DNA from: a candidate division WOR-3 bacterium
GTDB taxonomy: Bacteria; Hydrothermota; Tepidihabitantia; Tepidihabitantales; Tepidihabitantaceae
NCBI GenBank assembly: GCA_016935295.1
Contig: JAFGRF010000326.1
Span: 1-35,463 of the forward strand
Reading direction: 5' to 3'
DNA length: 35,463 nt
A model generated the notes under the pieces. The model had not been told where the DNA came from. It did no database searches and was given only the letters and a program-made list of their open reading frames with translations. Position numbers and translations under genes: made by a program. Below, one piece after another: positions 265-25,197 of this stretch (positions are counted from its first letter, which is position 1; the number at the start of each line of letters is the position of its first letter).

Positions 265-2238
265 TTGAGAGTTAGAGTATTCGCACTGGCCCTGCTGGCG
301 GCAGCGTTCCCCGCGCTCGTATTCGCGTATACGGGTCTCGGGGGCGGCAAGGGCCTCTTCCGGGTCCAGAACGCCATGGTTGAGGAAGAAGCGGGGCTGA
401 CCGTCTCGCTCCACGGCCTCGCCCGCAACGCCTACTTCGACACGACCGCCAGTCAGGGTTGGATTGCCGACCTCATCGCGCCCGAGCTTAGCTATGCGCC
501 GGTTGTCACCAAGTACGTCGGCCTCGAGCTTTTCGGGTCCTGGGGCGGCCAGTTCCAGACTCCGAAGGCCGCACCGCCAGACAGTGGATTCGTCTGGGGC
601 CTTCACGACCTGAAGGCCGGCGGCAAGCTCTCGACACCCGTCATCCCCGTGCTGAAAGTCGGTGCCGCTGTCAGCTACACCTTCAAGTGGCGGGACAGCC
701 AGACAGAGGCAGGCTGGACCGTTCTTGACCCTCAGGCCCTGCCCTACAACACCGCCAACGGGCTGGCGTGGAGCGCGCTCGCTACCATCCAGTTGCAGGA
801 TGTCCTGCCGACCGCTCCCAACCTGATCTTCAACTACGGCAAGGTCGGCGACCTGACGCAGTACGCAGCCGCGGTAGAGCTGCAGGGCAAGGTATTCGGT
901 GTGTTTGTAGAGGGAGTCTCACTGCAGCCGGCAGGAGCCGGCGTCTTCAACAACACGACCCCCCGTGGTCATTTGTGTGTGACCCCCGGCGTTGTGCTTG
1001 GCGACCCCACCTCGGGATTCCTCAAGCTCGGGTACACGATCAGCTCGGGCAACGACGTGAACGGCACCAAGTACCCCGACCAGATCAACCTGGGGCTCGC
1101 CATTGCCACTCCGTTCGGCGCGCACAAGCCCGCCGCCTACGGCACGCTCGTCGGCACCGTGGCCAACGCAAGCACGGGCACGCCGGTGGCAGGAGCAGCA
1201 ATCGCATTCCCTGACAATCCGAGGATGGCAGCCATGACCACCGAGGCGGACGGCATCTTCAAGACCGACAAGGCGCCGGCCGGTGCCGTCACGGTCGAAG
1301 TCAGCGCCGAGGGCTACAACAGACAGGTGGTGCCGGTGGCCGTCGAGGAAGACAAGATCGTCAACTACGAGTTCAAGCTGCGGCCGTTGAAGACCTACGG
1401 GACGATTGCCGGCACGGTCGTTGACGCCGTTACCAGCGTTCCCATGGCCGCGCTCATCGAATTCCCCGGCACGTCGTTGGACCCGGTGAACGCCGACCCC
1501 ACGACCGGTGCTTTCAGAGTCAGCAACGTCGAGACCGGTATCTACACGATCACCGCGGCCGCCGACAAGTACGTTCCCGCGACCCTCACCCTCGCAGTCG
1601 AGGACAACAAGCTGACCACCGCGACGTTCAAACTGTCGCCGGCCGAGGTCGCGGTCACCGCTACCGGCCGGGTCTTCGACAAGAAGACCGATGCGTCGCT
1701 GTCGGCCACGGTCACGTTCGACAACGCTGTGTTCAACACCGACCCGGCTACCGGCGTGTACAAGGCCCAGTTGATGCCCGGCTCCTACACGGTCGTGGTT
1801 GAATCGAAGGATTACGTGAAGCAGACCACGGCGCTCATCGTCGAGAAGGGCAAGCCGTTCGTGCGTGACTTCGCAATGCTCAAGGTGGGCATGTCGATCA
1901 CACTCCAGGGCATCTACTTCGACTTCGACCAGGCGACCATCAAGCCCGAGTCGAAGCCGGCGCTCGATGCCGCTGCCAGGATGCTCAACGAGAACCCGAC
2001 CATCAACGTCGAAATCCAGGGCCACACCGACAGCAAGGGCTCGGATTCGTACAACCTGTCGCTGTCCGACCGGCGCGCCGCCGCAGTCGTGACTTACCTC
2101 GTGCAGATACTCGGCATCGACATGTCACGCCTGACCTCCCGTGGTTACGGCGAGGGCATGCCGATTGCCACGAACGACACCGACGCCGGGCGCGCCTTGA
2201 ACCGCCGGGTTGAGTTCGTCATCACCGGTCAGAATTAA
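265..2238 (+). CDS. OmpA-family outer-membrane protein with CarboxypepD_reg-like Ig-fold repeats and a C-terminal OmpA peptidoglycan-binding domain
   Basis: TTG start just after AGGAGG. Signal peptide MRVRVFALALLAAAFPALVFA. Three repeats of the type GTxxGTVxD...G.Y.v.v.a.gY. C-terminus has NVEIQGHTDSKGSDSYNLSLSDRRA...GRALNRRVEFVI. Confidence 0.9.
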   Translation: MRVRVFALALLAAAFPALVFAYTGLGGGKGLFRVQNAMVEEEAGLTVSLHGLARNAYFDTTASQGWIADLIAPELSYAPVVTKYVGLELFGSWGGQFQTPKAAPPDSGFVWGLHDLKAGGKLSTPVIPVLKVGAAVSYTFKWRDSQTEAGWTVLDPQALPYNTANGLAWSALATIQLQDVLPTAPNLIFNYGKVGDLTQYAAAVELQGKVFGVFVEGVSLQPAGAGVFNNTTPRGHLCVTPGVVLGDPTSGFLKLGYTISSGNDVNGTKYPDQINLGLAIATPFGAHKPAAYGTLVGTVANASTGTPVAGAAIAFPDNPRMAAMTTEADGIFKTDKAPAGAVTVEVSAEGYNRQVVPVAVEEDKIVNYEFKLRPLKTYGTIAGTVVDAVTSVPMAALIEFPGTSLDPVNADPTTGAFRVSNVETGIYTITAAADKYVPATLTLAVEDNKLTTATFKLSPAEVAVTATGRVFDKKTDASLSATVTFDNAVFNTDPATGVYKAQLMPGSYTVVVESKDYVKQTTALIVEKGKPFVRDFAMLKVGMSITLQGIYFDFDQATIKPESKPALDAAARMLNENPTINVEIQGHTDSKGSDSYNLSLSDRRAAAVVTYLVQILGIDMSRLTSRGYGEGMPIATNDTDAGRALNRRVEFVITGQN

Positions 2239-2274
2239 AGACCCGGGCAGATAGCGCCCGACCGGTAATAATGC

Positions 2275-2300
2275 AGAGGGGAGGCTCCGGCCTCCCCTCT
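2275..2300 (+). terminator. intrinsic terminator hairpin
   Basis: AGAGGGGAGG-ctccgg-CCTCCCCTCT followed by a T/C-rich tail. A near-identical hairpin follows the paralog at 22808-22831. Confidence 0.7.
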
Positions 2301-2391
2301 TCCTGTCCTTGGTACGCGCTGGTCCGAACCACGCCCGCTCGGCGACGTTCGGGCCACGCATGTTAGAGGCCGGCGTCATTCCCGACGAGGT

Positions 2392-2420
2392 TTGACTTCG
2401 CCGGCACTGATGGCTAAATT
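2392..2420 (+). promoter_or_regulatory. sigma70-type promoter candidate for the kai operon
   Basis: TTGACT (2392-2397), 17-nt spacer, TAAATT (2415-2420). Confidence 0.5.
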
Positions 2421-2435
2421 ACTGGTGAGACACAT

Positions 2436-2615
2436 ATGCTGAAGACGCTGTCCAAGGGACTATTGCTCGTCCTTGTTGTCTGCTGTGGCTGCGGCTGGTT
2501 GGTGAAGCCGGCCGAGTTTCTGCACACAGAATACCTCGCAGCCGGAACTGCGAGTCCAGGTTCCGTCTTGTTGGGAGGAAATCGACATGACCAAACCGAA
2601 AAGACCCCTACGTAA
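2436..2615 (+). CDS. possible 59-aa upstream ORF with a lipoprotein-like signal (below the ORF-track size cutoff)
   Basis: ATG 2436, TAA 2613-2615. Translation MLKTLSKGLLLVLVVCCGCGWLVKP... It overlaps the kaiC start in another frame. No clear SD. Confidence 0.15.
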   Translation: MLKTLSKGLLLVLVVCCGCGWLVKPAEFLHTEYLAAGTASPGSVLLGGNRHDQTEKTPT

Positions 2616-4359
2616 AGCTCCGGAGGTCCGGCCGGCCAGGGCCGCGGGGCTGAAGCCCCTTGCGAAGTGCCCGACCGGAATTCGCGGGCTGGATGACGTT
2701 ACTGAAGGCGGATTGCCGCGCGGCCGGTCGACCCTGGTCTGCGGCGCCGCCGGCTGCGGCAAGACGTTGATGGCAATGGAGTTCGTGGTCCGGGGCGCGC
2801 GGGACTTCGGCGAACCCGGCGTGTTCATGGCTTTCGAGGAAACCGTGGCCGAACTCACCAGCAATGTCGCCAGCCTCGGGTTCGACCTGCCGTCGCTCAT
2901 CCGGCGCAAGAAGCTGGCGGTGGACTATGTCCGCATCGAGCGCAGCGAAATCGAGGAAACCGGTGAGTACGACCTCGAAGGGCTGTTCGTCCGCCTGGGT
3001 ACGATGATTGACGAAGTGCACGCAAAGCGCGTCGTGCTCGATACCATCGAGTCGCTCTTTGCCAGCCTGCCCAACGAGGGCATCCTGCGCGCCGAACTGC
3101 GCCGGCTGTTCCGCTGGCTGAAAGACCGGGGCGTTACCGCGGTGATTACTGCCGAGCAGGGCAAGGAAGGCGAACTCACACGCTACGGCCTTGAGGAATA
3201 CGTCAGCGACTGCGTGATTGTCCTCGACCACCGCCTGACCAACCAGGTCGCCACGCGCCGGCTCCGGGTTGTCAAGTACCGCGGGAGCAAACACGGCACG
3301 AACGAGTACCCGACGATGATTGACGAGCACGGGCTGAACGTCCTGCCCATCACTTCGCTCGGCCTGAGCCACGATGTTTCGACCCGGCGCGTCTCCACCG
3401 GCATTGCGCGCCTGGATACGATGATGACCGGGAAAGGCTACTGGGAGGGCAGCAGCATCCTGGTCAGTGGCACCGCCGGCGCGGGTAAGACCAGCATCGC
3501 CACGGCACTTCTGGACAGCGTCTGCCGGCATGGCGGCCGGTGCCTCTTCTTCTCGTTCGAGGAGTCGCCGGACCAGATTGCGCGCAACATGGCATCCATC
3601 GGGTTCGACCTCAACCGGCACGTGCGCAGCGGGTGTCTGCAGTTTCACACGGTCCGGCCGACGCTCTACGGACTGGAGAACCACCTGGTCACTCTCCACG
3701 ACCTCGTTGACCGGTGGCATCCCCGGGCGGTGGTCATGGACCCGATAACCGGCCTGACCAGCATCGGCGAGCCGGGTGAGGTCAAGTCGATGCTGATGCG
3801 GGTAGTTGACTACCTCAAGAGCCGAAACATCACCACGCTGTTCACCAGCCTGACCGAAGGCGGCGCCGCCCTCGAGAAGACCGACATCAGCATCTCCTCG
3901 CTGATGGACACCTGGCTCCTGCTGCGCATGGTCGAATCCGCCGGCGAGCGCAACCGGATACTGTATGTCCTCAAGAGCCGGGGCATGGCGCACTCCAACC
4001 AGATACGTGAGTTCGTGCTCACCGACCACGGCATCAAACTCACGGACGTGTATGTCGGCCGAGGTGAGGTCTACACCGGTTCGGCCCGCGTCGTCCAGGA
4101 GTCGCGGGACAGGGCCGACGCGATCGCCGCCGGACAGGCCTCCCACCGCCGGCAGCGGGAAATCACCCACGAACGGCTTGCACTGGAAGCCCAGATGCAG
4201 AAACTGCAGTCCCGGCTCGCCGAACTGAAACAGGAAACGACCATGGCCGCCAAACAGGAGCGGGAACGCGATGCCACCTCGCGCCATGACACCAAAGGCC
4301 TGGCCCGTATCCGGAAGGCCGACAGCGACGGAGCACAAGAAGAAGGGAACAACACATGA
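2587..4359 (+). CDS. kaiC: KaiC-family double-RecA ATPase/autokinase with extended C-terminal coiled-coil tail (KaiC2-like)
   Basis: 590 aa. Walker A GAAGCGKT and GTAGAGKT; catalytic FEE pairs (MAFEET, FSFEES). The CII segment [15 protein letters not shown] matches the region of the cyanobacterial S/T phospho-sites. About 70 extra C-terminal residues are rich in heptad-like [31 protein letters not shown] upstream. Confidence 0.9.
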
Positions 4360-4658
4360 CCAAAGCGGCATCGAGCCCCAAATCAGGGACCTGGGACCTG
4401 AAGCTCTACATCGCAGGCTATACGCCCCGGGCGGTGAAGGCCCTTGAAAACCTGAAGCAACTTTGCGAGGAACACCTGCACGGCGTGTACACTATCGAAG
4501 TAGTTGACCTGTTACGCAACCCGCGCCTGGCGCGGGGCGACCAGATCGTGGCGGTGCCCACCCTGGTCCGCAAGCTGCCGGAACCGGTCCGCAAAATCAT
4601 CGGCGACCTCTCGAACCGGGAACGGGTCCTGGTCGGTCTCGACCTGCGGCCGAGATGA
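4356..4658 (+). CDS. kaiB: KaiB
   Basis: 100 aa. ATGA start/stop overlap with kai[20 protein letters not shown]...[34 protein letters not shown] matches the KaiB family end to end. Confidence 0.92.
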
Positions 4659-4675
4659 AGACGCGCAGGCCGGGT

Positions 4676-4730
4676 GACGGAAGACGGAGGACGGAAGACG
4701 GAGGACGGAGTGCGGAGGCAGGGAGAGGAG
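4676..4730 (+). repeat. purine-rich heptamer/14-mer tandem repeat directly upstream of the activator start codon
   Basis: GACGGAAGACGGAG (4676-4689), GACGGAAGACGGAG (4690-4703), GACGGAGTGCGGAG (4704-4717), GCAGGGAGAGGAG (4718-4730), then AATG. It contains many GGA/GGAGG motifs. Confidence 0.85.
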
Positions 4731-4731
4731 A

Positions 4732-6366
4732 ATGAACGAACGCCGGACCGAGTCTCCGAGGGAGCTGCGTGCGCAGCTCGAGGACGTCCGGCACCGGCTG
4801 GCCGAGGCGGAAGAAACGCTCCGCGCTATTCGCGAAGGCGACGTGGACGCCGTGGTCGTCTCCGGAACCCGGGGCGACCAGATACTCACGCTCGACCAGG
4901 GCGAGGACGCTTACCGCCTGACGGTCGAGACGATGAATGAAGCCGGGATTGTTGTAGCCCCGGACGGGACGATACTCTTCGCCAACAAGGCCCTGGCCGG
5001 CATGCTCGGTGTCCCGCTCGAGCAGGTCGTCGGCAAGCCGTTCGCCCTGCACGTCCACGATCGGCAGGGCCTGGATAGCCTGCTCCGCGCGGCACGACAG
5101 TGTCCGACCGACGCGCGGTTGGTCCTGAACGGTACGGATGGCGAGTCGATACCGGTCTACGCCTGGGCCAGCCTGCTGGACCAACCCGACGGCGCGGCCG
5201 TCCTTCTCTTGGGCGCCGGACCTGCGCGACTCGAAGCCCCCCGCGAGATGATCAAGCACCTTCAGGCGCAGCGCCAGGCGTTGGCGGCCAGCGTGGCGGC
5301 GCTCAGGGAAGCTGAGACCAAAACCCACAGTCTCATCCAGTTCACCGCCAGTAAAGCACTGACCTCTGATCGGCTGCATCAACAGGTGGGACGGCTTCGC
5401 CAGGAGCTGGAAGGGCAATTCCGAATGGTCGGCGACTCGCCGGAACTGCAGCGCGTGCAGAGCCTGATAGCCCGCGTCGCGCCGACTGCCGCCAGTGTCC
5501 TCGTCACCGGCGAGAGCGGAGTGGGCAAGGAACTCGTGGCCCGGGCCGTTCACTTGCGGAGCCCGCGCGCCGGCGAACCATTCGTCGCACTCAACTGCGC
5601 CGCGATTCCCCAGGAACTAATAGAAAGCGAGCTATTCGGCCACGAGAAAGGCGCGTTCACCAACGCGGGGGCGGCCCGTGCCGGCAAGATACAGGAAGCT
5701 GACGGCGGCACGCTCTTCCTCGACGAAATCGGCGACTTGAGCCTGCCGGCGCAGGCGAAGCTGCTGCGGTTCCTGAACGACTCGGAGGTGCAGCGTGTCG
5801 GCGGCAGCGGCGTCATCCATCTCGACGTGAGAATAGTCGCCGCGACCAACAAAGACCTGCCGGAAATCATCAAGCACGGCGTTTTCCGTGACGACTTCTA
5901 CCACCGTTTGAACGTAGTGACTATCGAGGTCCCGCCGTTGCGAGAACGGATGTCGGACATCGAACTGCTCGCCACCTTCTTCCTTGACCGTTACTGCGCG
6001 GACTATGGCCGGATTGTTCGATTCGCGCCCGAGAGCTGGCACGCGTTGAAGGAGTACGCCTGGCCCGGCAATGTCCGCGAGCTGCGGAACCTCGTCGAGC
6101 GCGTTGTCATCCTGGCCGAAACGAACCCGGTCGAGGCCGAGGAGTTGCGTTCGTTTCTCGGCGCCGAGGCCAAGGTCCCGACGGACGGAACTCTTAAGGA
6201 GGCCCTTGAACGCGCCGAGCGCGAGGCCGTCGAGAGAGTCCTGGTGCAGACCAACCACAACGTTGCCGAGGCGGCCGCCATACTGGGCATTGTCCGTCCC
6301 AGCCTTTACCGGATCATTAAGCGGTACGGAATCGCTTCTCCAAGCCGGGCCCAGACCAAAGACTAG
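4732..6366 (+). CDS. PAS-domain sigma54-dependent transcriptional activator (bEBP) without a receiver domain
   Basis: N-terminal coiled coil plus PAS (GDVDAVVVSG...YRLTVETMNEAGIVVAPDGTILFANKA). AAA+ domain with Walker A GESGVGKE, Walker B LFLDEIG and ESELFGHEKGAFTNA. C-terminal Fis-type HTH NVAEAAAILGIVRPSLYRIIKRYGI. Confidence 0.92.
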   Translation: MNERRTESPRELRAQLEDVRHRLAEAEETLRAIREGDVDAVVVSGTRGDQILTLDQGEDAYRLTVETMNEAGIVVAPDGTILFANKALAGMLGVPLEQVVGKPFALHVHDRQGLDSLLRAARQCPTDARLVLNGTDGESIPVYAWASLLDQPDGAAVLLLGAGPARLEAPREMIKHLQAQRQALAASVAALREAETKTHSLIQFTASKALTSDRLHQQVGRLRQELEGQFRMVGDSPELQRVQSLIARVAPTAASVLVTGESGVGKELVARAVHLRSPRAGEPFVALNCAAIPQELIESELFGHEKGAFTNAGAARAGKIQEADGGTLFLDEIGDLSLPAQAKLLRFLNDSEVQRVGGSGVIHLDVRIVAATNKDLPEIIKHGVFRDDFYHRLNVVTIEVPPLRERMSDIELLATFFLDRYCADYGRIVRFAPESWHALKEYAWPGNVRELRNLVERVVILAETNPVEAEELRSFLGAEAKVPTDGTLKEALERAEREAVERVLVQTNHNVAEAAAILGIVRPSLYRIIKRYGIASPSRAQTKD

Positions 6367-6389
6367 TCCTCCTCACACCTGCACCGCCC

Positions 6390-6428
6390 TGTCTCCCGCG
6401 AGAGACGCCGAGTCTCCCAAAGGAGACA
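6390..6428 (+). promoter_or_regulatory. paired 18-bp palindromes, putative enhancer (UAS) for the bEBP
   Basis: TGTCTCCCGCGAGAGACG (6390-6407) and AGTCTCCCAAAGGAGACA (6411-6428), 21 bp centre to centre. The pair starts 24 bp after the activator stop codon. Confidence 0.6.
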
Positions 6429-6557
6429 ATACGATCCAGTGTGACATTCCCCTCAAGCAGAAACGCAGCACGGCATCCAACCGGCTGCAGGCATACCTGA
6501 CCGAGCAGCGCTCCCGGCACAGCGTGAAAACGCGGACGGCCGCTCCAACTACCCTTA

Positions 6558-6573
6558 TGGCATGATTGGTGCA
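6558..6573 (+). promoter_or_regulatory. sigma54 (-24/-12) promoter
   Basis: TGGCAT-GATTG-GTGCA with correct GG-N10-GC spacing. It lies ~90 nt upstream of the radical SAM start. Confidence 0.65.
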
Positions 6574-6665
6574 GGGTCACATGAGGAATCCGAGATGGCC
6601 GGGCATTCCAATGGCCATGCTGTTGCTGGCCGGAAGCGCGGCGTCTCTAAGGGAGTACGACTGAA

Positions 6666-8525
6666 GTGAAAGACCTGTTGTCCGGGGTCACCCGTGCCTT
6701 GCTTGTCCAGCCGCGGTTCTCCATACGGAGCTTCTGGAACTACGCCGAAACGTGCCGGCTGACCGGCGCCAGGTACTCATCCCCACCGCTGGGGCTGATG
6801 ACCGTCGCCTCGCTGCTTCCTCAGCGCTGGCAGTTGAGGCTCGTCGACGAGAACGTCAGACCCCTTGCCCGCACCGACCTGGATTGGGCGGACATCGTGC
6901 TCACCGGGGGCATGCTGCCCCAGCAGGCGGCCACGCTCGCGGTCATGGAGAGGGCGCACGCAGCAGGCAAGCCGGTCGTGCTGGGCGGGCCCGACCCTTC
7001 CCAGCAGCCGGGCATCTACCGGGACGCCGACTTCCTGGTTGCCGGTGAGGGGGAAATCACCATACCATCGTTCCTCGCCGACCTTGACCGGCACGCCAAG
7101 TCGGGCAGCTACCGCTCTTCCGAACGGGCGGACATGAGCCGGGCCGTGGTGCCACGGTTCGACCTCGTGAACTTCCGGGACTATCTGGAGGTGAACGTCC
7201 AGTTCTCGCGCGGGTGTCCTTTCAACTGCGAGTTCTGCGACGTCATCGAGCTGTTCGGCCGCCGCCCCCGAACCAAGGAAACCGGGCAGGTTCTCACCGA
7301 ACTCCAGCGACTGTACGACCTTGGGTACCGCGGTCACGTGAACTTCGTCGACGACAATCTCATCGGCAACAAGTCGAGAACACGGGACCTGCTCGCCGCG
7401 GTTGCCGAGTGGAACCGTTGGCACAAGTACCCTTTCTTCTTCAGCACCGAGGCGTCAATCAACCTCGCTCGGGACCCGGAGTTGCTGAACCTGATGCGGG
7501 ATTGCGACTTCCGATACGTGTTCGTAGGCATCGAAAGCCCGGACCAACGGGCACTGGACCGGGCCGGGAAAGTCCAGAATCTGAACGTCTCGGCCCCGGA
7601 CGCCGTCAGGACCATTGCTTCCTACGGCATCATGGTCCACGGCGGTTTCATCCTGGGGATGGACGGCGAGCCGCCCGACGTCGCGCGCAATCTCATTGAG
7701 TTGATCGACGATGCCGGCATCTGCATGGCCATGGTCGGCACGCTCTACGCTCTTCCGAACACTCAACTCGAGCGACGACTGCAGCGGGAAGGCCGGCTCT
7801 TCCGCCGAACGGCAGTCGACCAGGCTGGAGCCATAGATCAGATTACCAGCGGCCTGAACTTCGTCACCGAGAGGCCGCGCGCCGACGTGCTCGGCGACCA
7901 GGCAGACGTGCTGCGCCACATCTACGACCCGGCCCGGTTCTACAAGACGCTCACTAAGGTAGCAACCCGCCTGAAGCCGGCGTACAAGCACCGTGTCGGG
8001 CTCCGCGAGGCGCTGCGGCTGGCCCTGGGATTTGCCAGGCTCTCGGCCAAGGCCGGGTTCAGCCGGCAGACCGGCCTGCTCTACTGGAGGGCATTGCTGC
8101 GGGTGCTCGCAAAGAACCCGGCCGCGATTGATGTCGTCGCCAACATGGCGGCGATTTACCTCCACTTCGCCAGACAATCACGGCACGTAGTCGGTGCGCT
8201 CGACGCAGCGGCGGAGCACGTTCGAGCGTTCGGGGAGAAACGCCACAACGCGCTGATGACCGCAGGCATGCCCCCGGTCGAAGCCGGTACGAGCGCCACC
8301 GACGAGCCCGATTTCCGCCGCGCTCGACCGCCGGGACGAGTTCGTCATCCTCGGCCAGTTGTTGCAGCAACCTCGCCATTCGACCCGATGTCGTCAACTG
8401 CCGGACGTACACTGGCCTCCACGTCCGGCAGTAGTGCGACCCCGCCAGTCTATGCCGGCGGTATCCTCGTACGCAGTATTGAGCCAGAAGGAGACATGTA
8501 TGTTGAATCCTTCAGGTCGTTATGA
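6666..8525 (+). CDS. B12-binding radical SAM protein (DUF4070-type); the C-terminal ~100 codons read into an ompA-like remnant
   Basis: GTG start after AAGGGAG. N-terminal cobalamin-binding-like region (PPLGLMTVASLLP...IVLTGGM). CPFNCEFCDV CxxxCxxC cluster (7215-7238). The tail from ~8200 is homologous to the ompA 3-prime end. Confidence 0.8.
   Translation: MKDLLSGVTRALLVQPRFSIRSFWNYAETCRLTGARYSSPPLGLMTVASLLPQRWQLRLVDENVRPLARTDLDWADIVLTGGMLPQQAATLAVMERAHAAGKPVVLGGPDPSQQPGIYRDADFLVAGEGEITIPSFLADLDRHAKSGSYRSSERADMSRAVVPRFDLVNFRDYLEVNVQFSRGCPFNCEFCDVIELFGRRPRTKETGQVLTELQRLYDLGYRGHVNFVDDNLIGNKSRTRDLLAAVAEWNRWHKYPFFFSTEASINLARDPELLNLMRDCDFRYVFVGIESPDQRALDRAGKVQNLNVSAPDAVRTIASYGIMVHGGFILGMDGEPPDVARNLIELIDDAGICMAMVGTLYALPNTQLERRLQREGRLFRRTAVDQAGAIDQITSGLNFVTERPRADVLGDQADVLRHIYDPARFYKTLTKVATRLKPAYKHRVGLREALRLALGFARLSAKAGFSRQTGLLYWRALLRVLAKNPAAIDVVANMAAIYLHFARQSRHVVGALDAAAEHVRAFGEKRHNALMTAGMPPVEAGTSATDEPDFRRARPPGRVRHPRPVVAATSPFDPMSSTAGRTLASTSGSSATPPVYAGGILVRSIEPEGDMYVESFRSL
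8200..8358 (+). pseudogene. remnant of the 3-prime end of an ompA-family gene, embedded in the radical SAM ORF tail
   Basis: The DNA ...gccaccgacgagcccgatttccgccgcgctcgaccgccgggacgagttcgtcatcctcggccag aligns to ...gccaccaacgagaccgattccggccgcgcgctcaaccgccgggttgagttcgtcatcctcggacag (22715-22780) with an indel. It encodes LDRRDEFVILGQ in a shifted frame. Confidence 0.6.
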
Positions 8526-8778
8526 CAGCAACGGCCGCGCCGGAGGTGGCAGATACGGTCGCTCCTCAGAGGAGGCCCGCACGCCGGTCCAGACGGATAG
8601 GGCCAGCGAATCAGGCCCGCCGGCGAACGGCGCTACTGGCTGGTCCCAATCGGCCCTGACGCACTGGAATGCGATGCAGAGAGGACGGGATCGCGAAGCC
8701 CGCACTTGGGGTGACGGAGCGGACAGCATACGAGATGGCCAGAAGAGCAGAGAAGCGAACGCTGAAGGGGACCCTTGA
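8500..8778 (+). CDS. hypothetical R/G-rich small protein (uncertain)
   Basis: ATG 8500 lies 5 nt after AAGGAG. Translation MLNPSGRYDSNGRAGGGRYGRSSEE... is low complexity. It could instead be a non-coding scar between remnants. Confidence 0.2.
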   Translation: MLNPSGRYDSNGRAGGGRYGRSSEEARTPVQTDRASESGPPANGATGWSQSALTHWNAMQRGRDREARTWGDGADSIRDGQKSREANAEGDP

Positions 8779-8950
8779 ACGCGCTGAGCGCGAGGCGGTA
8801 GAACGAGCAATGACGCAGGCGCAGAACAACGTTGCCGAGGCGGCCGCTATGCTGGGTATCGCGTGTCCCAGCCTCTACCGGATCACAGAGCGCCACGGGA
8901 TCGGCTCTCCGTCTCACACTCAGAACAAGGGCAACTCTCCACCGCAGTGA
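8762..8950 (+). pseudogene. orphan copy of the bEBP C-terminal Fis-type HTH (3-prime gene fragment)
   Basis: GTLERAEREAVERAMTQAQNNVAEAAAMLGIACPSLYRITERHGIGSP compares with GTLKEALERAEREAVERVLVQTNHNVAEAAAILGIVRPSLYRIIKRYGIASP at the end of 4732-6366. DNA similarity is obvious. No AAA+ domain lies upstream. Confidence 0.7.
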
Positions 8951-8958
8951 TCGCGACT

Positions 8959-8997
8959 TGTCTCCCTTGGGAGAATGGCTGTCTCCTCGGGGAGACA
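8959..8997 (+). promoter_or_regulatory. paired 18-bp palindromes (UAS)
   Basis: TGTCTCCCTTGGGAGAAT (8959-8976) and TGTCTCCTCGGGGAGACA (8980-8997), 21-bp phasing. The pair starts 9 bp after the HTH-fragment stop. Confidence 0.6.
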
Positions 8998-9050
8998 ACG
9001 CCGGCCATAGCGCCCTGCCAACTGGCTCGGAACGTTGCCCGACACTACCC

Positions 9051-9066
9051 TGGCACGTATCCTGCT
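9051..9066 (+). promoter_or_regulatory. sigma54 promoter
   Basis: TGGCAC-GTATC-CTGCT, 55 bp downstream of the UAS pair. Confidence 0.6.
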
Positions 9067-9310
9067 TTGGGAATGGTGGGTTACATAGAACCCAAGGGAA
9101 CGGCAACCTATGTTGCCATTGCCTCCGGCAACCAAACGGGCCCACAGCCGGTTGTCGTGACGGTTGCGGAAAGCCGGTGCGCCCGGACCCGTAGCCGACA
9201 TTGGTCGGAAGCTGCCGGGATAGCGCACCAGTCCCCTTTCCCGGCAGCTACCGTCCGCAGAGCAGAACGGGTCCAGCGCGCGCAGAAACACGAACAACAA
9301 TGGGAGAGAA

Positions 9311-9532
9311 ATGAAGATAGTCAGAACCATTCAGAAACCGGCCGGCATCCTCTACAGCCCCGCTACCGGCCTGATGGTGATGGAGTTCGCCGACCGGGGC
9401 CGTTACATCTACCACGATGTACCCAAGAGCATCTATGACGTCCTCAAGTGTGCGCCCGCTCACGTGCATGCCCAGTTCGTCAATAACGCCGGGCACCACT
9501 TTTCAGTCATCGATGGCATAGAAACGTACTGA
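9311..9532 (+). CDS. KTSC-domain protein
   Basis: 73 aa. ILYSPATGLMVMEFADRGRYIYHDVPKSIYDVL carries the central YxY..VP signature of the KTSC domain. Confidence 0.65.
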   Translation: MKIVRTIQKPAGILYSPATGLMVMEFADRGRYIYHDVPKSIYDVLKCAPAHVHAQFVNNAGHHFSVIDGIETY

Positions 9533-9607
9533 GGGCCGCTCCGCCGCGTCCGGCTGAGGCGCCATGCTGCGCCGCCGAAGTACGCGGGAGACGGCGGCCT
9601 TGGTTGG

Positions 9608-9622
9608 TGGCACGCTTCGTGC
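9608..9622 (+). promoter_or_regulatory. sigma54 promoter
   Basis: TGGCAC-GCTTC-GTGC, ~115 nt upstream of the lipoprotein start. Confidence 0.55.
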
Positions 9623-9738
9623 CCATAACAGACCATGGCGATGTGCAACGCCACGACTCTAGAAGACTGTGCCGGCTGCAACTCAAGCCCAGCGAGGCTT
9701 CCCCTGTCAGCCGGTCAACGCAAGAAAGGAAGATCCGT

Positions 9739-10500
9739 ATGAAGTATCTATCGACAACACTGGGAGCGCTGCTGCTTCTGGTCATTTCGTGCAATCAACC
9801 GGTCAGTCTCGTGATGCCGACGGTCAGCTACACGCCGGTTGACGACGGCGCGACGCTCCGCCTTACGTGGACCATGGTTGAAAAGGCTACCGGGTATACA
9901 GTGTACGTTGATGGCGTCCCGCATTCGATCATTTCCGGGATTTACTCCTACGACGTGTCGTCTCCGGCCAAGCTGATCCAGGTCTCGGCGGTCGCGAAAT
10001 CAAGTGAAAGTGATAAGTGGAGCCTTACGACAACAGTCAAGAAGACCAGCAACGTCGCGGTCTATTCGATGGCAGATTCGCAGCAGATCAACCACGCATT
10101 CTACTTCGATGCGACCGGTACGGCAATAGCGATTCCGATGACACAGGCTTCGGATGTTGATTTCGTGCTCGATACCACCCAGACTGCAGGTGCCATCCAG
10201 TTGCGTTCGCCCAATTCGTATGACCCGGTCTACAACACCAAGAGCAACTCGTCTGCCGCCACGAGCGTAACGAATCTGAATGACCTCACGATTGCTCCCG
10301 CGACCGGGGCGGATTACAGCCCGGCGCGCACGATTTCCGAGAGTTCGGTCTACGCCCTATGGCTGGATCCCAGCAACGACGGCTGGTCGGCCGAAGACCA
10401 TTTCGCCAAGATCAAAGTCGAAGCTCTCTCGGGTACGTCGGTGACGCTTACGACGGAATACCAGACGGTCCCCGGTCTCCGCTGGCTGATATCGGACTAG
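9739..10500 (+). CDS. lipoprotein with an FN3-like N-terminal domain, function unknown
   Basis: Internal ATG 9739 after AAGGAAG. Lipobox LLLLVISC. GATLRLTWTMVEKATGYTVYVDG is FN3-like. Codon third positions are visibly more AT-rich than in neighbouring genes. Confidence 0.7.
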   Translation: MKYLSTTLGALLLLVISCNQPVSLVMPTVSYTPVDDGATLRLTWTMVEKATGYTVYVDGVPHSIISGIYSYDVSSPAKLIQVSAVAKSSESDKWSLTTTVKKTSNVAVYSMADSQQINHAFYFDATGTAIAIPMTQASDVDFVLDTTQTAGAIQLRSPNSYDPVYNTKSNSSAATSVTNLNDLTIAPATGADYSPARTISESSVYALWLDPSNDGWSAEDHFAKIKVEALSGTSVTLTTEYQTVPGLRWLISD

Positions 10501-10531
10501 GGATTCTGAACGAAGCAGCAACCGCCTGCTG

Positions 10532-10558
10532 CGGCGGCGGCTGACGGAGCCGCCGCCG
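10532..10558 (+). terminator. GC-rich hairpin downstream of the lipoprotein gene
   Basis: CGGCGGCGGCT-gacgg-AGCCGCCGCCG (11-bp stem). No U-tail. Confidence 0.4.
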
Positions 10559-10616
10559 AGGCAGTTATGCCCGACGCATGGTAGGCAATCGACGATGCTC
10601 TCTCCCTATCGCCTCC

Positions 10617-10631
10617 TGGCACGAAAGCTGC
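10617..10631 (+). promoter_or_regulatory. sigma54 promoter
   Basis: TGGCAC-GAAAG-CTGC. The predicted TSS is ~20 nt before ATG 10664, with AAGGAG in between. Confidence 0.6.
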
Positions 10632-10663
10632 GTCACCTCAAGCAAACAAAAAGGAGATCGCTG

Positions 10664-11278
10664 ATGGAGAAGGTCGTGTTTGAGCTCGTGAAGCGCGATG
10701 GCCGGCGCGAAGCGTACCACCCGCAGAAGCTTGTGCGGTCACTCCTGCGAGCCGGTCTGGCGCCCCGCATGCTGGTCGAGACCGTCGCCAAGATCCGACC
10801 CTGGCCGGGCCTTGATACCGACTCTCTGCGCACATTGGTCGAGTACGCACTTTCGCTCCGGCAGCCAAGCGCGGCGCACCGCTACGCTACCACCCGCAGT
10901 CTTGTCGCTCGCTCGTCCGAGCAGTCAGCATCCGGCTGGGCCTGCATGAACCCGGAGACGGTGCGCAGGCTGGGTCTGAGACACGGCGACGCAGTCTGGC
11001 TGTGCCAGGAGCAGACGCCGGCGCCGTTCAGCATTGACAGCCGCGCGGACGTCGAGCGCGGCCAGGCCTGGCTCAACCCTCGGGAGATGGCCGCGATGGA
11101 GATAAGAGACGGGACCAAGCTGGCGGCCTCCAGCGTCTTTCACGACGGCTCGGCACCGACCGAGGATCGCCCGTACCGTGGCGGCGCCGGTGTGACCGCC
11201 CAGCCGCCGTCCGGGACGGCAGGACCTGTATTACTCTACGCTCGGGCCTCATCGCCGCCCAGCATGGATGCGGACTAG
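10664..11278 (+). CDS. ATP-cone domain protein with a CDC48_N/VatN-like double-psi beta-barrel
   Basis: Start moved to ATG 10664 (AAGGAG SD). VVFELVKRDGRREAYHPQKLVRSLLRAG is ATP-cone-like. NPETVRRLGLRHGDAVWL...GQAWLNPREMAAMEIRDGTKL is the barrel-like part. The tail looks disordered. Confidence 0.65.
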   Translation: MEKVVFELVKRDGRREAYHPQKLVRSLLRAGLAPRMLVETVAKIRPWPGLDTDSLRTLVEYALSLRQPSAAHRYATTRSLVARSSEQSASGWACMNPETVRRLGLRHGDAVWLCQEQTPAPFSIDSRADVERGQAWLNPREMAAMEIRDGTKLAASSVFHDGSAPTEDRPYRGGAGVTAQPPSGTAGPVLLYARASSPPSMDAD

Positions 11279-11918
11279 TACCGTCGGAATCTGCAAAACA
11301 AGACGACCTGAGGCTTCCACGCCCCAAGACATGAAAGTCGGCCCAGCGCCTCGGGTCGGCCTCCTGCCAGTGGACTGGGTACGGTGGTTCCTCCAGTATC
11401 GGTGACACCCACAACGAGCCATTTCGGGCGGGCGTGCAGGCGGTTCTCGACAATCTGCATGTAGTGGTGTGGATTGAGGCTTTAGCCTTGATGCTGGTGA
11501 CTGACACCCCCGCCTGGAGGACTACACCCCATGTCGTTCAGGAAGCCGTTCAAACCGTTACGTCGTATATCGTTTGGAGAGTAGTCTCGACCGCCGTACG
11601 CCGAAGAGCTTCCGTCGTAGTCTCCCCTGCTACGCAAACTGCTGCGGGGTCGGCTACCTCCTCGGCCATGCGCCAAACCGTCCGACCCGCAATCCAACCC
11701 GTTACCCCGCAGGCAACGTAGGCCGCAATTCCTCAGTTCGTCTGAGACACTGCGGAGCCAGGTGTCCTGCACATCACACCCGGAGTCATGTCATCAATCG
11801 TGTCCCGAGACACGCCCTCGGTACGATGCCCGCTCCACACGGAATCTGAACCCCGATGTGTGCAGCAGGGACCAGAATCATCTCGACTCGCCCGGGCAAC
11901 CGTCAGCACGGTCCGGTG

Positions 11919-12253: not shown

Positions 12254-12499
12254 TCAGACTCGCCTAAGCAGCACCGGACCCCGGTTGAGCTTGTTGAGCT
12301 TGTTGTAGCCTGACCACTCGCTCCAGGGCGTCAGGTCTGATGCCGGAACCAGTCCCAGAAACAGGCCCACTGGGAGGACGGGGAATAGCGACTCCACACC
12401 AAACGAGTTCCGGACTCTCGCCATCACGCCCGGACACCGGTGCCCCGCGCCAGCCATCCGCCGCTCTGTTCTACGTAACGATGCGTGGTGAAACTCCAT
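12254..12499 (-). pseudogene. fragment related to the C-terminal half of the small OMP at 18954-19454
   Basis: VMARVRNSFGVESLFPVLPVGLFLGLVPASDLTP compares with MRIGVRVPFGLEYVFASVPIGLFLEVVPTFDLAG. The upstream part seems broken across several frames: a signal-like MKYVPALMIGFLAKPVASPLSG-stop begins at 12750. Confidence 0.35.
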
Positions 12500-12763
12500 C
12501 AGGGTCGTAGTCGTCTCTCCTGCCGGGTTTCCGGCGTCGCCGGCTGGTACTTCGAAGGGACTCTCGGTTCACGCCTCGTGAGCCGGACCGGTAGCCTGGG
12601 AGTGTGAGAGTTGGCCGGTTCGGCCCAGTAGAGCATCACCTCAGGCTTCCCCGGGCCAAGTCTGATAGCTGACCTCACGGCTTCATCCGCTCAGTGGGGA
12701 AGCGACAGGTTTCGCGAGGAAGCCGATCATCAGCGCTGGGACGTACTTCATGAACCAGCCGAG

Positions 12764-12779
12764 TGCAACCTGCGTGCCA
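12764..12779 (-). promoter_or_regulatory. sigma54 promoter (minus strand)
   Basis: The reverse complement reads TGGCAC-GCAGG-TTGCA, a perfect consensus. It points leftward toward 12750-11919. Confidence 0.7.
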
Positions 12780-12963: not shown

Positions 12964-13002
12964 AGTCTCCCTGAGGAGACAGTCATTCTCCCCGGGATAC
13001 AG
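12964..13002 (-). promoter_or_regulatory. paired palindromes (UAS) in inverted orientation
   Basis: AGTCTCCCTGAGGAGACA (12964-12981) and ATTCTCCCCGGGATACAG (12985-13002). The reverse complement closely matches the pair at 8959-8997. Confidence 0.55.
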
Positions 13003-13227: not shown

Positions 13228-13266
13228 TGTCTCCTTCGGGAGAATCGGTGTCTCTTCAGGGAGACC
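13228..13266 (+). promoter_or_regulatory. paired palindromes (UAS)
   Basis: TGTCTCCTTCGGGAGAAT (13228-13245) and TGTCTCTTCAGGGAGACC (13249-13266). The flank gacTTGTCTCC is identical to that at 8956. Confidence 0.6.
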
Positions 13267-13402: not shown

Positions 13403-13418
13403 TGGCACGGCAAGTGCA
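13403..13418 (+). promoter_or_regulatory. sigma54 promoter
   Basis: TGGCAC-GGCAA-GTGCA. The predicted leader to ATG 13488 is ~60 nt. Confidence 0.7.
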
Positions 13419-13487: not shown

Positions 13488-14186
13488 ATGATAAGGCTCA
13501 CAAAGCGCGATGGAACTCAGGACGGGTTCTTGCGCAGCAAGGTTGAGGAATCCTTGCGACGGGCCGGCGCATCCGATGATGTCATCAGTGGCACGTTGCA
13601 GCGCGTGACCCCGACCGATGGTGAAAGTACCGCGTCGTTCCGCAACCGGATAGTAGCAGAACTGCGGAGCCGGTCGCCCGAGACGGCCCGGCGCTACGAG
13701 AGCAGCCGGCGCCTCGACTTAGCCCGGACCGACAGCTTGGTCGAGGGCACGGCCTTGGTCAGCCCGTACACCCTGCACTACTACGGCTGGGAGCCGAACG
13801 ACGCTGTCAACGTCCAGCGCGGCAATAGGACGGTATCGCTGAAAGTCGATCAGTCAGCCACCGCCGACGTGCACATGATGTGTTGCAGCCCACGAACGCT
13901 CAAGATTGTGGGCGCATCCGAGGGAGCCAGAGTCACTCTGACCCAGAATCGCCAGCCAGAACGGGAACTTCCATTGCTCGGCCAAGCGCCGGTCGCCACT
14001 CCGACATCATGCGCGGCTTCGCCAAACGCCTCGGCCCAGCTCTGGTCGGACTCCGAAACGAACAGGGAAGGCTCTGGCGCTGACGGAAGGGCATCTACTC
14101 ACGGTGCAGCAGCGCTTCGCTCGCTTGACACCAACTCATCCGCGCCTAACGTCTCTACGGAGGCAAGGTCAAGTCCGGCCCTATGA
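13488..14186 (+). CDS. ATP-cone domain protein, paralog of 10664-11278
   Basis: MIRLTKRDGTQDGFLRSKVEESLRRAG is ATP-cone-like. The ARRYESSRRL boundary and following beta-rich domain are arranged as in the paralog. S/A/T-rich tail. Confidence 0.65.
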   Translation: MIRLTKRDGTQDGFLRSKVEESLRRAGASDDVISGTLQRVTPTDGESTASFRNRIVAELRSRSPETARRYESSRRLDLARTDSLVEGTALVSPYTLHYYGWEPNDAVNVQRGNRTVSLKVDQSATADVHMMCCSPRTLKIVGASEGARVTLTQNRQPERELPLLGQAPVATPTSCAASPNASAQLWSDSETNREGSGADGRASTHGAAALRSLDTNSSAPNVSTEARSSPAL

Positions 14187-16536: not shown

Positions 16537-16554
16537 AGTCTCCCGTCGGAGACA
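16537..16554 (+). promoter_or_regulatory. single 18-bp palindrome (UAS-like)
   Basis: AGTCTCCCGTCGGAGACA, preceded by gggacTAG as at the ends of the HTH copies. Confidence 0.45.
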
Positions 16555-16773: not shown

Positions 16774-17025
16774 TCTCGTCAGACCGAGCAGAGCCGCGAC
16801 CCGCAAACCTCCGCAGCCCCTCAGCACGGTCGCCAGAGCAACAAGCCCGGATCCGGCAACCTGCCTTCAGTGTCCTCAGTGCAGCAATCGTGCCAGTCCG
16901 CCCTCCGGACGAGTCTCGAGCACCGCTGCTGGGCAAACCGTACTGCATTCCATCGGTACAAGCACTGGCTGGTTGCCAATGGTCAGCAATCGACGCGCCA
17001 AGACCAGTTGCCCGTCAGGGACAAC

Positions 17026-17043
17026 GTGTCTCTCTGAAGATAC
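17026..17043 (+). promoter_or_regulatory. single degenerate palindrome (UAS-like)
   Basis: TGTCTCTCTGAAGATACA, the same variant as at 17777 and 18579. Confidence 0.4.
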
Positions 17044-17127
17044 AACCATCGCGCCGCTATGACAGGTCAGTCGTCGCCGGACTGCAGGCACAGAGGCGCA
17101 ACCCAGCAACCGCGACCCGGTCTGCAC

Positions 17128-17143
17128 TGGCACGCGACGTGCA
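17128..17143 (+). promoter_or_regulatory. sigma54 promoter
   Basis: TGGCAC-GCGAC-GTGCA(GT). Confidence 0.65.
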
Positions 17144-17155: not shown

Positions 17156-17404
17156 ATGAAGGACCATGACTTGTTCGCGCCACCAACCACAGCGACGTCG
17201 CCACTAGTGGTCCGGCACCCTGTCTCAGTGCCCGCAGTCTGGCAAGGCAGCCTGCACACAGATGTCTCGACCTCGATTGCCGCGGGAACGGTCATGGCCG
17301 GCACCGAATCGAGCGAGCCTGTTGGGGATCGACGTCCTGTCCAATTAGCATCCGAGAAGCGTTCGGCTGTCCCGGATGGCATTCTCCGGTCGAGGCGCTC
17401 ATGA
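17156..17404 (+). CDS. hypothetical 82-aa ORF, possibly leaderless (uncertain)
   Basis: The ATG lies ~2 nt after the predicted sigma54 TSS. No recognisable domain. Confidence 0.2.
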   Translation: MKDHDLFAPPTTATSPLVVRHPVSVPAVWQGSLHTDVSTSIAAGTVMAGTESSEPVGDRRPVQLASEKRSAVPDGILRSRRS

Positions 17405-17755
17405 GGCTCGGATTCTACCCGCGGACCGTCCGTACGGGAAAAGCCGAGTCGGCGCCGGAATCAACGGAATCGGCAGCAACAACTGACACCAAGTCTCCCG
17501 ACCCCCGCCGAGACAGCGAGGCCGGCCGAGCGCCTCAGGCCGGCCTCGTCTGCCGATCCGACTCGCATGACCTGCCGTCCGGGACTCCATCGGACACTGA
17601 CGCGCCGGCCGCGACAAGATTGGTCAAGAGATCATATTGGACATGCGGCTGAGTCGAACCACTTCCAGACCCAAGAAGCTTTCGGACAGCGTTGGGCTCG
17701 ACCTGAGCCCCGCTGTCAGCAGTCAGAACCAACTGCGCCGGGGAGCGCGACCATC

Positions 17756-17794
17756 TGTCTCCCAACGGAGACCGCGTGTCTCTCTGTAGATACA
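17756..17794 (+). promoter_or_regulatory. paired palindromes (UAS)
   Basis: TGTCTCCCAACGGAGACC (17756-17773) and TGTCTCTCTGTAGATACA (17777-17794), 21-bp phasing. Confidence 0.6.
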
Positions 17795-17887
17795 ACCTCT
17801 CCCGCCCTTTGGTACGTAGAAGCGCACGGATTGCAGTCATGGAGGGGCGCAGGACATGTGATTCAACCAGCACGGCCCGATCCGGAC

Positions 17888-17903
17888 TGGCACGACAAGC
17901 GCC
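17888..17903 (+). promoter_or_regulatory. sigma54 promoter
   Basis: TGGCAC-GACAA-GCGCC, ~100 nt upstream of csbD. Confidence 0.6.
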
Positions 17904-18004: not shown

Positions 18005-18184
18005 ATGAAATCGAGTACGCAGGACGAAGCGGAAGGCAAGCTCCACAAGGTGAAGGGTAGTATCACGGAGATTGCGGGGAAAGTCACCAAGAATCGCAAA
18101 CTGGTACGGAAAGGCAAGGCCGAGAAGAGAGCCGGCAAAGCACAGGAGAAGGTCGGCCAGGTGAAGAAGGCCCTTGGGAAATAG
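18005..18184 (+). CDS. csbD: CsbD-family stress protein (59 aa, below the ORF-track cutoff)
   Basis: GGAGG SD. MKSSTQDEAEGKLHKVKGSITEIAGKVTKNRKLVRKGKAEKRAGKAQEKVGQVKKALGK has the typical CsbD repeat pattern. Confidence 0.8.
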   Translation: MKSSTQDEAEGKLHKVKGSITEIAGKVTKNRKLVRKGKAEKRAGKAQEKVGQVKKALGK

Positions 18185-18323
18185 AACGAAGCCGCTCTGC
18201 ATTGCGCCCCGCAACTCCGAGCGAAACGCTGCGGCGCCAGCCAAGGTCCGGCCGATACAGCCGACGAAACAGGGACCGAGATGCGAAGTGAGACGAACCG
18301 GCACCGTGCCCAACGCTAGAACG

Positions 18324-18500
18324 GACGGCGCACTCCATGTTGCCTTGGAGCGCACGGAGCGCCGGGCGGTTGAGAAGGTACTTGCGCAGACAAATGGCAA
18401 CGTCGCCCAGGCGGCTGCCAGGTTGGGCATATTGCGTACGAGCCTCTACCGTATCATGAAGCGCTGCGGAATCGCTACTCCGTCAAGTGCCAGGGACTAG
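18324..18500 (+). pseudogene. second orphan copy of the bEBP C-terminal HTH
   Basis: DGALHVALERTERRAVEKVLAQTNGNVAQAAARLGILRTSLYRIMKRCGIATPSSARD-stop. There is no upstream AAA+ domain, and the frame overlaps the csbD end. Confidence 0.65.
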
Positions 18501-18578: not shown

Positions 18579-18596
18579 TGTCTCTCTAGGGATACA
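18579..18596 (+). promoter_or_regulatory. single degenerate palindrome (UAS-like)
   Basis: TGTCTCTCTAGGGATACA. A weaker TGTATCC-N5-TGTTACA lies at 18506-18524. Confidence 0.4.
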
Positions 18597-18690
18597 TCTG
18601 TAATGCTGTCGCGACCGCTCGCGGGCACACGGACCGCAGTCTAAGAGGCGCGCTGGCCGCGCAAGACGAAGACCAACGCGAGGCCTTTCC

Positions 18691-18706
18691 AGGCACACAA
18701 GGTGCA
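18691..18706 (+). promoter_or_regulatory. sigma54 promoter
   Basis: AGGCAC-ACAAG-GTGCA(GT), ~240 nt upstream of the OMP start. Confidence 0.5.
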
Positions 18707-20749: not shown

Positions 20750-20818
20750 ACGTGGGCAAAGCAGACCGTGAATCCGTTAGTTACGCAGAAAGGCTTCAAA
20801 GAAGCCACAGGAGGTAGA

Positions 20819-24377: not shown

Positions 24378-24392
24378 GAAAGGAGATTCAGA

Positions 24393-25190: not shown

Positions 25191-25197
25191 CAAGACG

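Follow-up and report, generated by a model that had tools for sequence, protein, structure and literature searches.

Homologs of KaiB and KaiC are widespread outside cyanobacteria, where the targets they control and the means of that control are largely obscure, and a KaiC homolog has been implicated in stress resistance in Legionella. To our knowledge, no targets are known for the PAS kinases that partner KaiBC. The closest described systems are the kaiC-kaiB-PAS/histidine kinase operons of Rhodopseudomonas palustris and Rhodobacter sphaeroides (PMC4794148). In R. sphaeroides KaiC, two hexamers are linked by a coiled-coil bundle of the C-terminal extension, which takes the place of KaiA (PMC10076222). 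KidA, a multi-PAS protein, contacts fold-switched KaiB through its PAS domains (PMC9478674), and work in Pseudomonas connects a KaiC homolog with stress resistance (10.1101/2022.01.26.477890). Here, we analyzed a 35,463-nucleotide contig from a candidate division WOR-3 bacterium (GenBank assembly GCA_016935295.1, contig JAFGRF010000326.1, positions 1 to 35,463; hereafter the window), in which kaiC and kaiB are followed by a gene for a PAS-containing sigma-54 activator, or enhancer-binding protein (EBP). The WOR-3 phylum is now named Caldifarciminota at NCBI.

This locus probably encodes a KaiA-less, R. sphaeroides-type KaiC-KaiB timer in which a one-component sigma-54 EBP has taken the place of the PAS histidine kinase partner. 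It shares with the kaiC-kaiB-PAS/histidine kinase operons the KaiC type (tail and paired serine phospho-sites), KaiB, the N-terminal module of the third protein (38-50% identity) and the gene order. However, the output of the WOR-3 third gene consists of sigma-54 AAA+ and HTH_8 domains instead of HisKA/HATPase_c, no response regulator would be needed, and a single kaiB is present where those operons mostly have two. In the cyanobacterial KaiABC system acting via SasA/CikA and RpaA, a protein reading KaiB/KaiC likewise controls transcription, as we propose for the WOR-3 EBP, but the WOR-3 system lacks KaiA, a SasA-type KaiB-like domain and a phosphorelay, and its output is sigma-54 dependent with one component instead of two. 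Literature searches found no paper joining KaiC and KaiB to sigma-54, and only irrelevant ones for KaiC with sigma54, rpoN or an enhancer-binding protein. Within the literature searched, a KaiBC timer whose output runs through a one-component sigma-54 protein to a defined local regulon appears not to have been described before. The preliminary description of this DNA had called such wiring an undescribed output route, which agrees with the literature; it is not strictly unique, however, as an independent fusion was found in a Thermodesulfobacteriota locus (L042, below).

The first three genes are closely packed. The sequence ATGA at 4356-4359 is common to the end of kaiC and the start of kaiB, and exactly 73 nt separate kaiB from the EBP gene, both as originally noted. 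The EBP was described at that stage as a PAS-AAA+-HTH activator without a receiver domain, and Pfam agreed, placing PAS at residues 61-156, Sigma54_activat (PF00158, 228 bits) at 232-399, AAA_lid_14 at 404-481 and HTH_8 at 492-532, with no Response_reg, HisKA or HATPase_c domain. The Walker A motif GESGVGKE is present, and the EBP has no exact protein record. The claim that the window holds neither kaiA nor a sensor kinase also stood. A tblastn search with seven histidine kinase C-termini returned nothing at E <= 0.01 in the window, and Pfam detected neither HATPase_c nor KaiA in its other plausible genes, so that a hidden kinase was ruled out. A SasA-type KaiB-like N-terminal domain or a CikA-type pseudo-receiver was found neither in the EBP nor in the window by Pfam and tblastn, and Rfam and tRNA scans of the window gave no match.

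No terminator-like or sigma-70-like site was predicted on the plus strand of the kaiB-EBP spacer, which contains 2.4 copies of a 14-nt repeat unit, GACGGAAGACGGAG, over 4676-4709. Among relatives, the length of this spacer ranges from 45 to 200 nt. The sigma-70-like promoter ahead of kaiC is the sole promoter-like match in 2200-6700, and its sequence is conserved in the related WOR-3 locus L001. Between this promoter and kaiC lies the remnant of a LEA_2 gene from which approximately 400 bp have been deleted relative to relatives, as judged by alignment (compare 7182-7658 of L001). The LEA_2 promoter and signal-peptide codons survive the deletion and now immediately precede kaiC. We considered and rejected an autoregulatory loop from the EBP to kaiC, because the region upstream of kaiC has no upstream activator sequence (UAS) or -24/-12 site and only the sigma-70-like promoter.

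KaiC contains two Pfam KaiC domains (346 bits) and matches the NCBIfam model PRK09302 with 712 bits (cut-off 408), while falling below the cyanobacterial equivalog model TIGR02655 (333 bits against a cut-off of 546). Among solved structures, R. sphaeroides KaiC (8dba, 8fwi and 8db3) matches it best, with 606 bits, and the next distinct protein scores 362. Walker A and B motifs and catalytic glutamate pairs are present in both RecA-like domains, and the residues K59/T60, E84/E85, D152, K301/T302, E325/E326, D385 and S437/S438 are intact. The last pair are the counterparts of R. sphaeroides S413/S414, the positions mutated to EE in 8fwi. Beyond position 505, KaiC carries an extension of 86 residues, and the alignment to 8dba continues through this C-terminal tail (query 510-574). 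Hydropathy in residues 506-565 is periodic at 7 and 3.5 residues, which lends modest support to predicted heptads. These results bear out the initial reading of a heptad-like C-terminal addition, whose quoted 22-letter stretch falls at residues 529-550, as well as its comparison with the tails of KaiA-independent KaiC proteins such as that of R. sphaeroides. By homology, KaiC is of the R. sphaeroides type. KaiB matches Pfam KaiB (PF07689) with 93 bits and NCBIfam NF006798 with 115.2 bits (cut-off 110). Among solved structures, its best match is cyanobacterial KaiB 1wwj (108.7 bits), followed by R. sphaeroides KaiB 8fwj_M with 105.2 bits.

In order to identify other proteins harboring the N-terminal module of the EBP, we queried a set containing a single genome for each GTDB species, using an alignment restricted to EBP residues 1-234, and carried out a second, independent scan of metagenome contigs. 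The 76 best non-WOR-3 matches in genomes, with 34-50% identity over residues ~5-175, came from Acidobacteriota, Planctomycetota, Verrucomicrobiota, Fibrobacterota, Chromatiales, Thermodesulfobacteriota, Methanoperedens and others. Although kai genes formed no part of the query, kaiB was located within 600 nt upstream in 70 of the 71 informative genome loci, 65 of which also had kaiC by tblastn. In the metagenome scan, kaiB was upstream in 69/74 informative loci; two of the 69 were WOR-3 relatives, leaving 67/72 outside WOR-3. Taken together, the two scans placed kaiB directly upstream in 137/143 informative non-WOR-3 loci. All KaiCs examined next to the module (60/60) have the long tail. The module proteins from genomes mostly end in kinase domains, with HATPase_c in 60/68 and HisKA or HisKA_3 in most by Pfam, which together with the described operon (PMC4794148) agrees with the earlier statement that non-cyanobacterial kaiBC genes are usually followed by PAS histidine kinases. 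Sigma54_activat was found in 0/68 of these proteins by Pfam, and the only sigma-54 fusion among the metagenome loci is a WOR-3 relative.

Conservation within the module is concentrated ahead of the PAS core. Across the 68 proteins, invariant and near-invariant positions mostly precede it, with the consensus LRxRLxEAEETLRAIRxGEVDAxVVSG. An AlphaFold model of the EBP module shows a helix (9-34), a hairpin (40-53), the PAS core (57-161) and a long linker helix (164-233), and the helix-hairpin cap carries EAEETLRAIREGDVDA. Like the Kai-linked PAS sensor proteins, the EBP thus has the EAEETLRAIRxGEVDA helix-hairpin cap and PAS, encoded directly after kaiB. Because its N-terminal module is the one that heads the PAS kinases following kaiC-kaiB, the kinase output appears to have been exchanged for sigma-54 AAA+/HTH, and on comparative grounds the WOR-3 EBP is a Kai-linked sensor with a replaced output. 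These comparisons give good support, at the level of genomics, to the original suggestion that timer output is coupled directly to an enhancer-binding protein.

A comparable fusion occurs outside WOR-3. In L042, a Thermodesulfobacteriota metagenome-assembled genome (MAG; 7962-11375), kaiC-kaiB-kaiB is followed by an N-module histidine kinase and then by an N-module-PAS-sigma-54 EBP. This locus resembles the window in having the module fused to sigma-54 AAA+/HTH after the kai genes, but differs in retaining the N-module histidine kinase and in the extra PAS domain of its EBP. The L042 EBP module has 47% identity to that of its neighboring kinase and 39% to the WOR-3 EBP, suggesting that the fusion arose independently. 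Another arrangement was observed in L024, an NC10 MAG (7962-11304), with kaiC-kaiB-kaiB, a 194-aa protein composed of the N-module only and a PAS-GAF-sigma-54 EBP, and may be a split version of the KaiBC/sigma-54 wiring. Most of the Kai-linked kinase loci (L013-L088 and L091-L168) contain two kaiB genes, the kinase-adjacent copy being more divergent (~50% identity).

Full-length relatives of the EBP with 70-84% identity were found in metagenomes and in MAGs named candidate division WOR-3. Gene order kaiC-kaiB-EBP was kept in all nine informative WOR-3 loci with upstream sequence (the window, L001/L009, L002/L003, L004, L010, L011, L012, L089 and L090; kaiC where the contig reaches), with EBP identities of 65-85%. 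A lack of genomic co-occurrence in relatives had been named beforehand as a refuting result; co-occurrence was found in 9/9 informative loci with a PAS-type EBP. Two further WOR-3 loci, L005 and L006, have an EBP with a receiver domain (REC-type) at the same island position and no kai genes. Their order is OmpA-like, LEA_2, EBP, CsbD, small HTH_8, a 166-172-aa protein, DUF5670, 104-aa and 122-aa genes and OmpA-like. The AAA+/HTH region of the REC-type EBP is 84% identical to that of the window EBP. Between L001 and L005, LEA_2 is 85% identical, while the EBPs become similar only from residue ~208 onward, a position within the linker helix. In a neighbor-joining tree of the AAA+/HTH regions, calculated without support values, the REC-type clade falls inside the PAS-type group. 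On the basis of the homology border and the kai-less REC loci, kaiC, kaiB and EBP residues ~1-207 seem to act as a single swappable input cassette, the counterpart of a receiver domain.

Candidate targets of the EBP lie immediately downstream of it. A search for TGTCTC-N6-GAGA with at most one mismatch gave 23 UAS matches in the window against 3.1 expected, all but one within 6.4-18.6 kb and mostly paired. The promoter motif TGGCAC-N6-TGC occurs 7 times against 0.51 expected, in every case within 9-17.2 kb. With variant and near-consensus elements, approximately ten -24/-12 promoters are predicted in total downstream of the EBP, at a UAS-to-promoter distance of about 70-190 bp (Table 1). The sigma-54 promoters originally placed immediately downstream were therefore recovered, together with a conserved enhancer motif. 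WOR-3 loci with either type of EBP show the same UAS and promoter architecture, with a density of up to 0.2-0.65 per kb, whereas 953 kb of non-WOR-3 kai loci contain the promoter motif at 0.003 per kb and the UAS motif at 0.018 per kb. A UAS is located within ~20-75 nt of the EBP stop codon in L005 and in those KaiBC-type loci for which downstream sequence is available.

These features suggest the following path. A single transcript from the sigma-70-type promoter would carry kaiC, kaiB and the EBP gene. By homology to R. sphaeroides KaiC, KaiC would autophosphorylate on S437/S438 without KaiA and probably form a dodecamer through its tail, and KaiB would bind the phosphorylated, post-hydrolysis form. 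As gene linkage suggests, the helix-hairpin cap and PAS of the EBP would read the state of KaiB/KaiC and pass the signal along the linker helix to the AAA+ ring. The EBP, predicted to occupy the paired TGTCTCC-N4-GGAGACA sites through HTH_8, would then activate sigma-54 RNA polymerase at the roughly ten -24/-12 promoters of the adjacent ~12-kb island, a control that GAFTNA in the sigma-54 contact loop may loosen or abolish in this strain. We regard the chances as evenly balanced that, in this non-phototrophic, uncultured phylum, a one-component sigma-54 activator of a compact stress or dormancy island is under the direct control of a KaiBC hourglass, that KaiBC plus PAS forms a portable cassette, and that this would be the first Kai output outside cyanobacteria amenable to reconstruction in Escherichia coli with a reporter. 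Such reconstruction could be feasible because enhancer, promoters and activator are all defined. The locus lays out a whole candidate path, from timer through Kai-linked sensor module and sigma-54 activator to an enhancer motif with about ten promoters and an identifiable gene set, and the question of output can be put to a direct test by reconstitution in a heterologous host. The arrangement further suggests that Kai timers outside cyanobacteria set the timing of stress-protective genes, and the GAFTNA variant and the exchange of REC for KaiBC provide built-in genetic contrasts.

Several points weigh against direct gating of the island by KaiBC. We infer the docking of the module on KaiB or KaiB-KaiC, and the direction of signaling, from gene linkage only, and the linkage figures, which come from the best 80 loci of each scan, apply to the most similar modules only. 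WOR-3 loci contain only the kaiC-proximal type of kaiB; without the second, divergent copy, the docking partner may differ. A fold search with the N-module returned generic PAS, LOV and heme-PAS neighbors only, and the PAS core could bind a ligand of its own. The promoters at 9608 and 10617 have no recognizable TGTCTCC-N4-GGAGACA nearby. The gene rpoN is not in the 35-kb window; WOR-3 has many sigma-54 EBP paralogs. Finally, GAFTNA may uncouple the EBP of the window from its sensor module.

This last point underlies the alternative that survives best, in which the coupling is broken in this strain: the GAFTNA EBP would be constitutively active or inactive and the island, unlike that of the ancestral system, no longer gated by KaiBC. 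The loop position is glycine in 11/11 aligned relatives (GAFTGA or GSFTGA), and asparagine, arising by a double change of GGC to AAC, occurs only in the window among the 12 aligned proteins. The WOR-3 EBP shares with one-component activators such as NorR, NifA and their PAS-containing relatives an architecture of sensor, AAA+ and HTH_8 with upstream enhancers; it differs in that its sensor family is genomically tied to KaiBC and in that the loop of the window has the bypass substitution of NorR G266N. That NorR variant is fully constitutive and independent of the N-terminal sensor, yet retains open-complex formation and activates, while NtrC G219K gives no activation (PMC2941729). Since the G-to-N change leaves NorR active, GAFTNA counts as a variant within the sigma-54 activator family and not as an exclusion from it. 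Most of the neighboring LEA_2 gene is also missing from this strain, which, with both changes together, may be an uncoupled variant of the system. However, masking of GAFTGA by the sensor, as in NorR, is only one mode of bEBP (bacterial EBP) control, and control of oligomerization through the linker helix would be unaffected; moreover, kaiC, kaiB and the N-module are without sign of decay. We consider broken coupling a serious but doubtful possibility.

It is rather unlikely that the PAS domain responds to a signal of its own (redox, a small ligand or light), with the protein acting as an input or modulator of KaiBC in the manner of KidA and the regulon following the PAS ligand instead of the state of KaiC. 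KidA offers a precedent, as its PAS domains bind KaiB and alter the oscillator rather than report it (PMC9478674). The AlphaFold model predicts a well-folded PAS core, with mean pLDDT values of 84-92 over most of the core in 10-residue blocks, and the structural neighbors of this core appear to be generic ligand-binding PAS domains. A PDB sequence search with the N-module gave no significant match, and a protein search with the module alone returned short fragments only. However, the conserved positions of the 68 Kai-linked proteins are mostly in the helix-hairpin cap and not in the PAS core, which suits a protein-docking element. The module is also joined to output domains, either a kinase or AAA+/HTH, and is interchangeable at the same locus with a receiver domain, the classic signal-receiving input. 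The association of an N-terminal PAS region with KaiB makes KidA a precedent for PAS-KaiB contact, but KidA has GGDEF/EAL outputs and tunes clock period, and the parallel with the WOR-3 EBP is drawn from this shared association. Lastly, a merely coincidental adjacency of functionally unrelated kaiBC and EBP genes is strongly disfavored and highly improbable: despite the 73-nt spacer and a link drawn from sequence alone, gene order is kept in 9/9 informative WOR-3 loci, kaiB is upstream in 137/143 informative non-WOR-3 loci found by the N-module alone, and, in comparison with REC-type loci, kaiCB and the N-module come and go as a unit.

Table 1. Positions of genes, candidate regulatory sites and other features in the window
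Feature	Positions	Strand	Basis or remark
CarboxypepD_reg/OmpA outer-membrane protein	265-2238	+	Pfam; flanks the island
Sigma-70-like promoter, TTGACT-17-TAAATT	2392-2420	+	ahead of LEA_2 remnant and kaiC
LEA_2 lipoprotein gene remnant	2436-2615	+	first 27 aa 85% identical to LEA_2 of L001
kaiC, R. sphaeroides type	2587-4359	+	590 aa; C-terminal extension, residues ~505-590; family and structure matches
kaiB, single copy	4356-4658	+	100 aa; family matches
Purine-rich tandem repeat in kaiB-EBP spacer	4676-4718	+	GACGGAG units
PAS/sigma-54 activator (EBP) gene	4732-6366	+	544 aa
EBP N-terminal Kai-linked module	4732-5424	+	AlphaFold model and homology to Kai-linked kinases
EBP output: sigma-54 AAA+ domain, lid and HTH_8 DNA-binding domain	5425-6366	+	Pfam
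GAFTNA loop, predicted sigma-54 contact	5650-5667	+	GGC to AAC, two adjacent nucleotide changes
UAS pair 1: two TGTCTCC-N4-GGAGACA palindromes, TGTCTCCCGCGAGAGACG and AGTCTCCCAAAGGAGACA	6390-6428		21 bp apart, from 24 nt past the EBP stop
Candidate -24/-12 promoter TGGCATGATTGGTGC, TGGCAT variant	6558-6572	+	~150 bp past UAS pair 1, ahead of radical-SAM gene
B12-binding radical SAM protein (DUF4070)	6666-8525	+	family matches
Stand-alone HTH_8 protein, recognition helix like that of the EBP	8669-8950	+	
UAS pair 2	8959-8997		motif search
Candidate -24/-12 promoter of KTSC gene (9311-9532)	9051-9065	+	
Candidate -24/-12 promoter of 253-aa gene (9739-10500)	9608-9622	+	no UAS recognized nearby
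Candidate -24/-12 promoter of ATP-cone-like gene (10664-11278)	10617-10631	+	no UAS recognized nearby
Candidate -24/-12 promoter for small genes 12499-12678 and 12254-12499	12765-12779	-	
UAS upstream of minus-strand promoter at 12779	12964-12981		
UAS pair	13228-13266		
Candidate -24/-12 promoter of gene 13488-14186	13403-13417	+	
Single UAS palindrome	16537-16554		no partner promoter assigned
Candidate -24/-12 promoter	16881-16895	-	divergent from that at 17128
UAS between divergent promoters 16895(-) and 17128(+)	17027-17044		
Candidate -24/-12 promoter for genes 17156-17404 and 17401-17652	17128-17142	+	
UAS pair	17756-17794		
Near-consensus -24/-12 element TGGCACGACAAGCGC	17887-17901	+	below UAS; ahead of CsbD (18005-18184) and HTH_8 protein (18174-18500)
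UAS	18579-18596		
Near-consensus -24/-12 element AGGCACACAAGGTGC	18690-18704	+	below UAS; L001 equivalent is TGGCACACTAAGTGC

The predicted products of the ~12-kb island include KTSC, CsbD, DUF5670, ElaB/DUF883-like, ATP-cone-like, radical-SAM and OmpA-like proteins and several small proteins without an assigned family. The element at 18690 is followed by 18954-19454, DUF5670 (19564-19713), the ElaB/DUF883-like gene (19993-20304), for which the family match is weak, and 20317-20685. This gene set resembles the general-stress sets of other bacteria and looks like a stress or dormancy set. The stress-linked KaiC homologs of Pseudomonas and Legionella also belong to non-photosynthetic hosts, and the WOR-3 downstream genes are likewise of stress type (CsbD, ElaB-like). 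However, the Pseudomonas and Legionella systems rely on histidine kinases together with single-domain response regulators for signaling, and the genes they target are not adjacent.

Two stand-alone HTH_8 proteins (8669-8950 and 18174-18500) have a helix-turn-helix nearly identical to that of the EBP (SLYRI..R.GI), with equivalents in all related loci, and may compete for, or help at, the EBP enhancer sites. The genes at 10664-11278 and 13488-14186 are distant paralogs, related at 27% identity via L001, each with its own sigma-54 promoter; ATP-cone and Molydop_binding Pfam matches are weak and appear only in the first of this pair. The OmpA-type gene at 265-2238 has a paralog at 20768-22786, and the pair brackets the island, as it does in related loci. 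Beyond it, the region 23000-29200 has a lower G+C content (0.58-0.61 over most of 23-29 kb), a DNA-methylase-like gene at 23058-24377 and several open reading frames without a family match, and is possibly a mobile or restriction-modification insert. The minus strand of 29223-35407 encodes a type IV pilus cluster composed of a prepilin peptidase, a T2SSE ATPase, a secretin, PilO and a PilM/PilN fusion.

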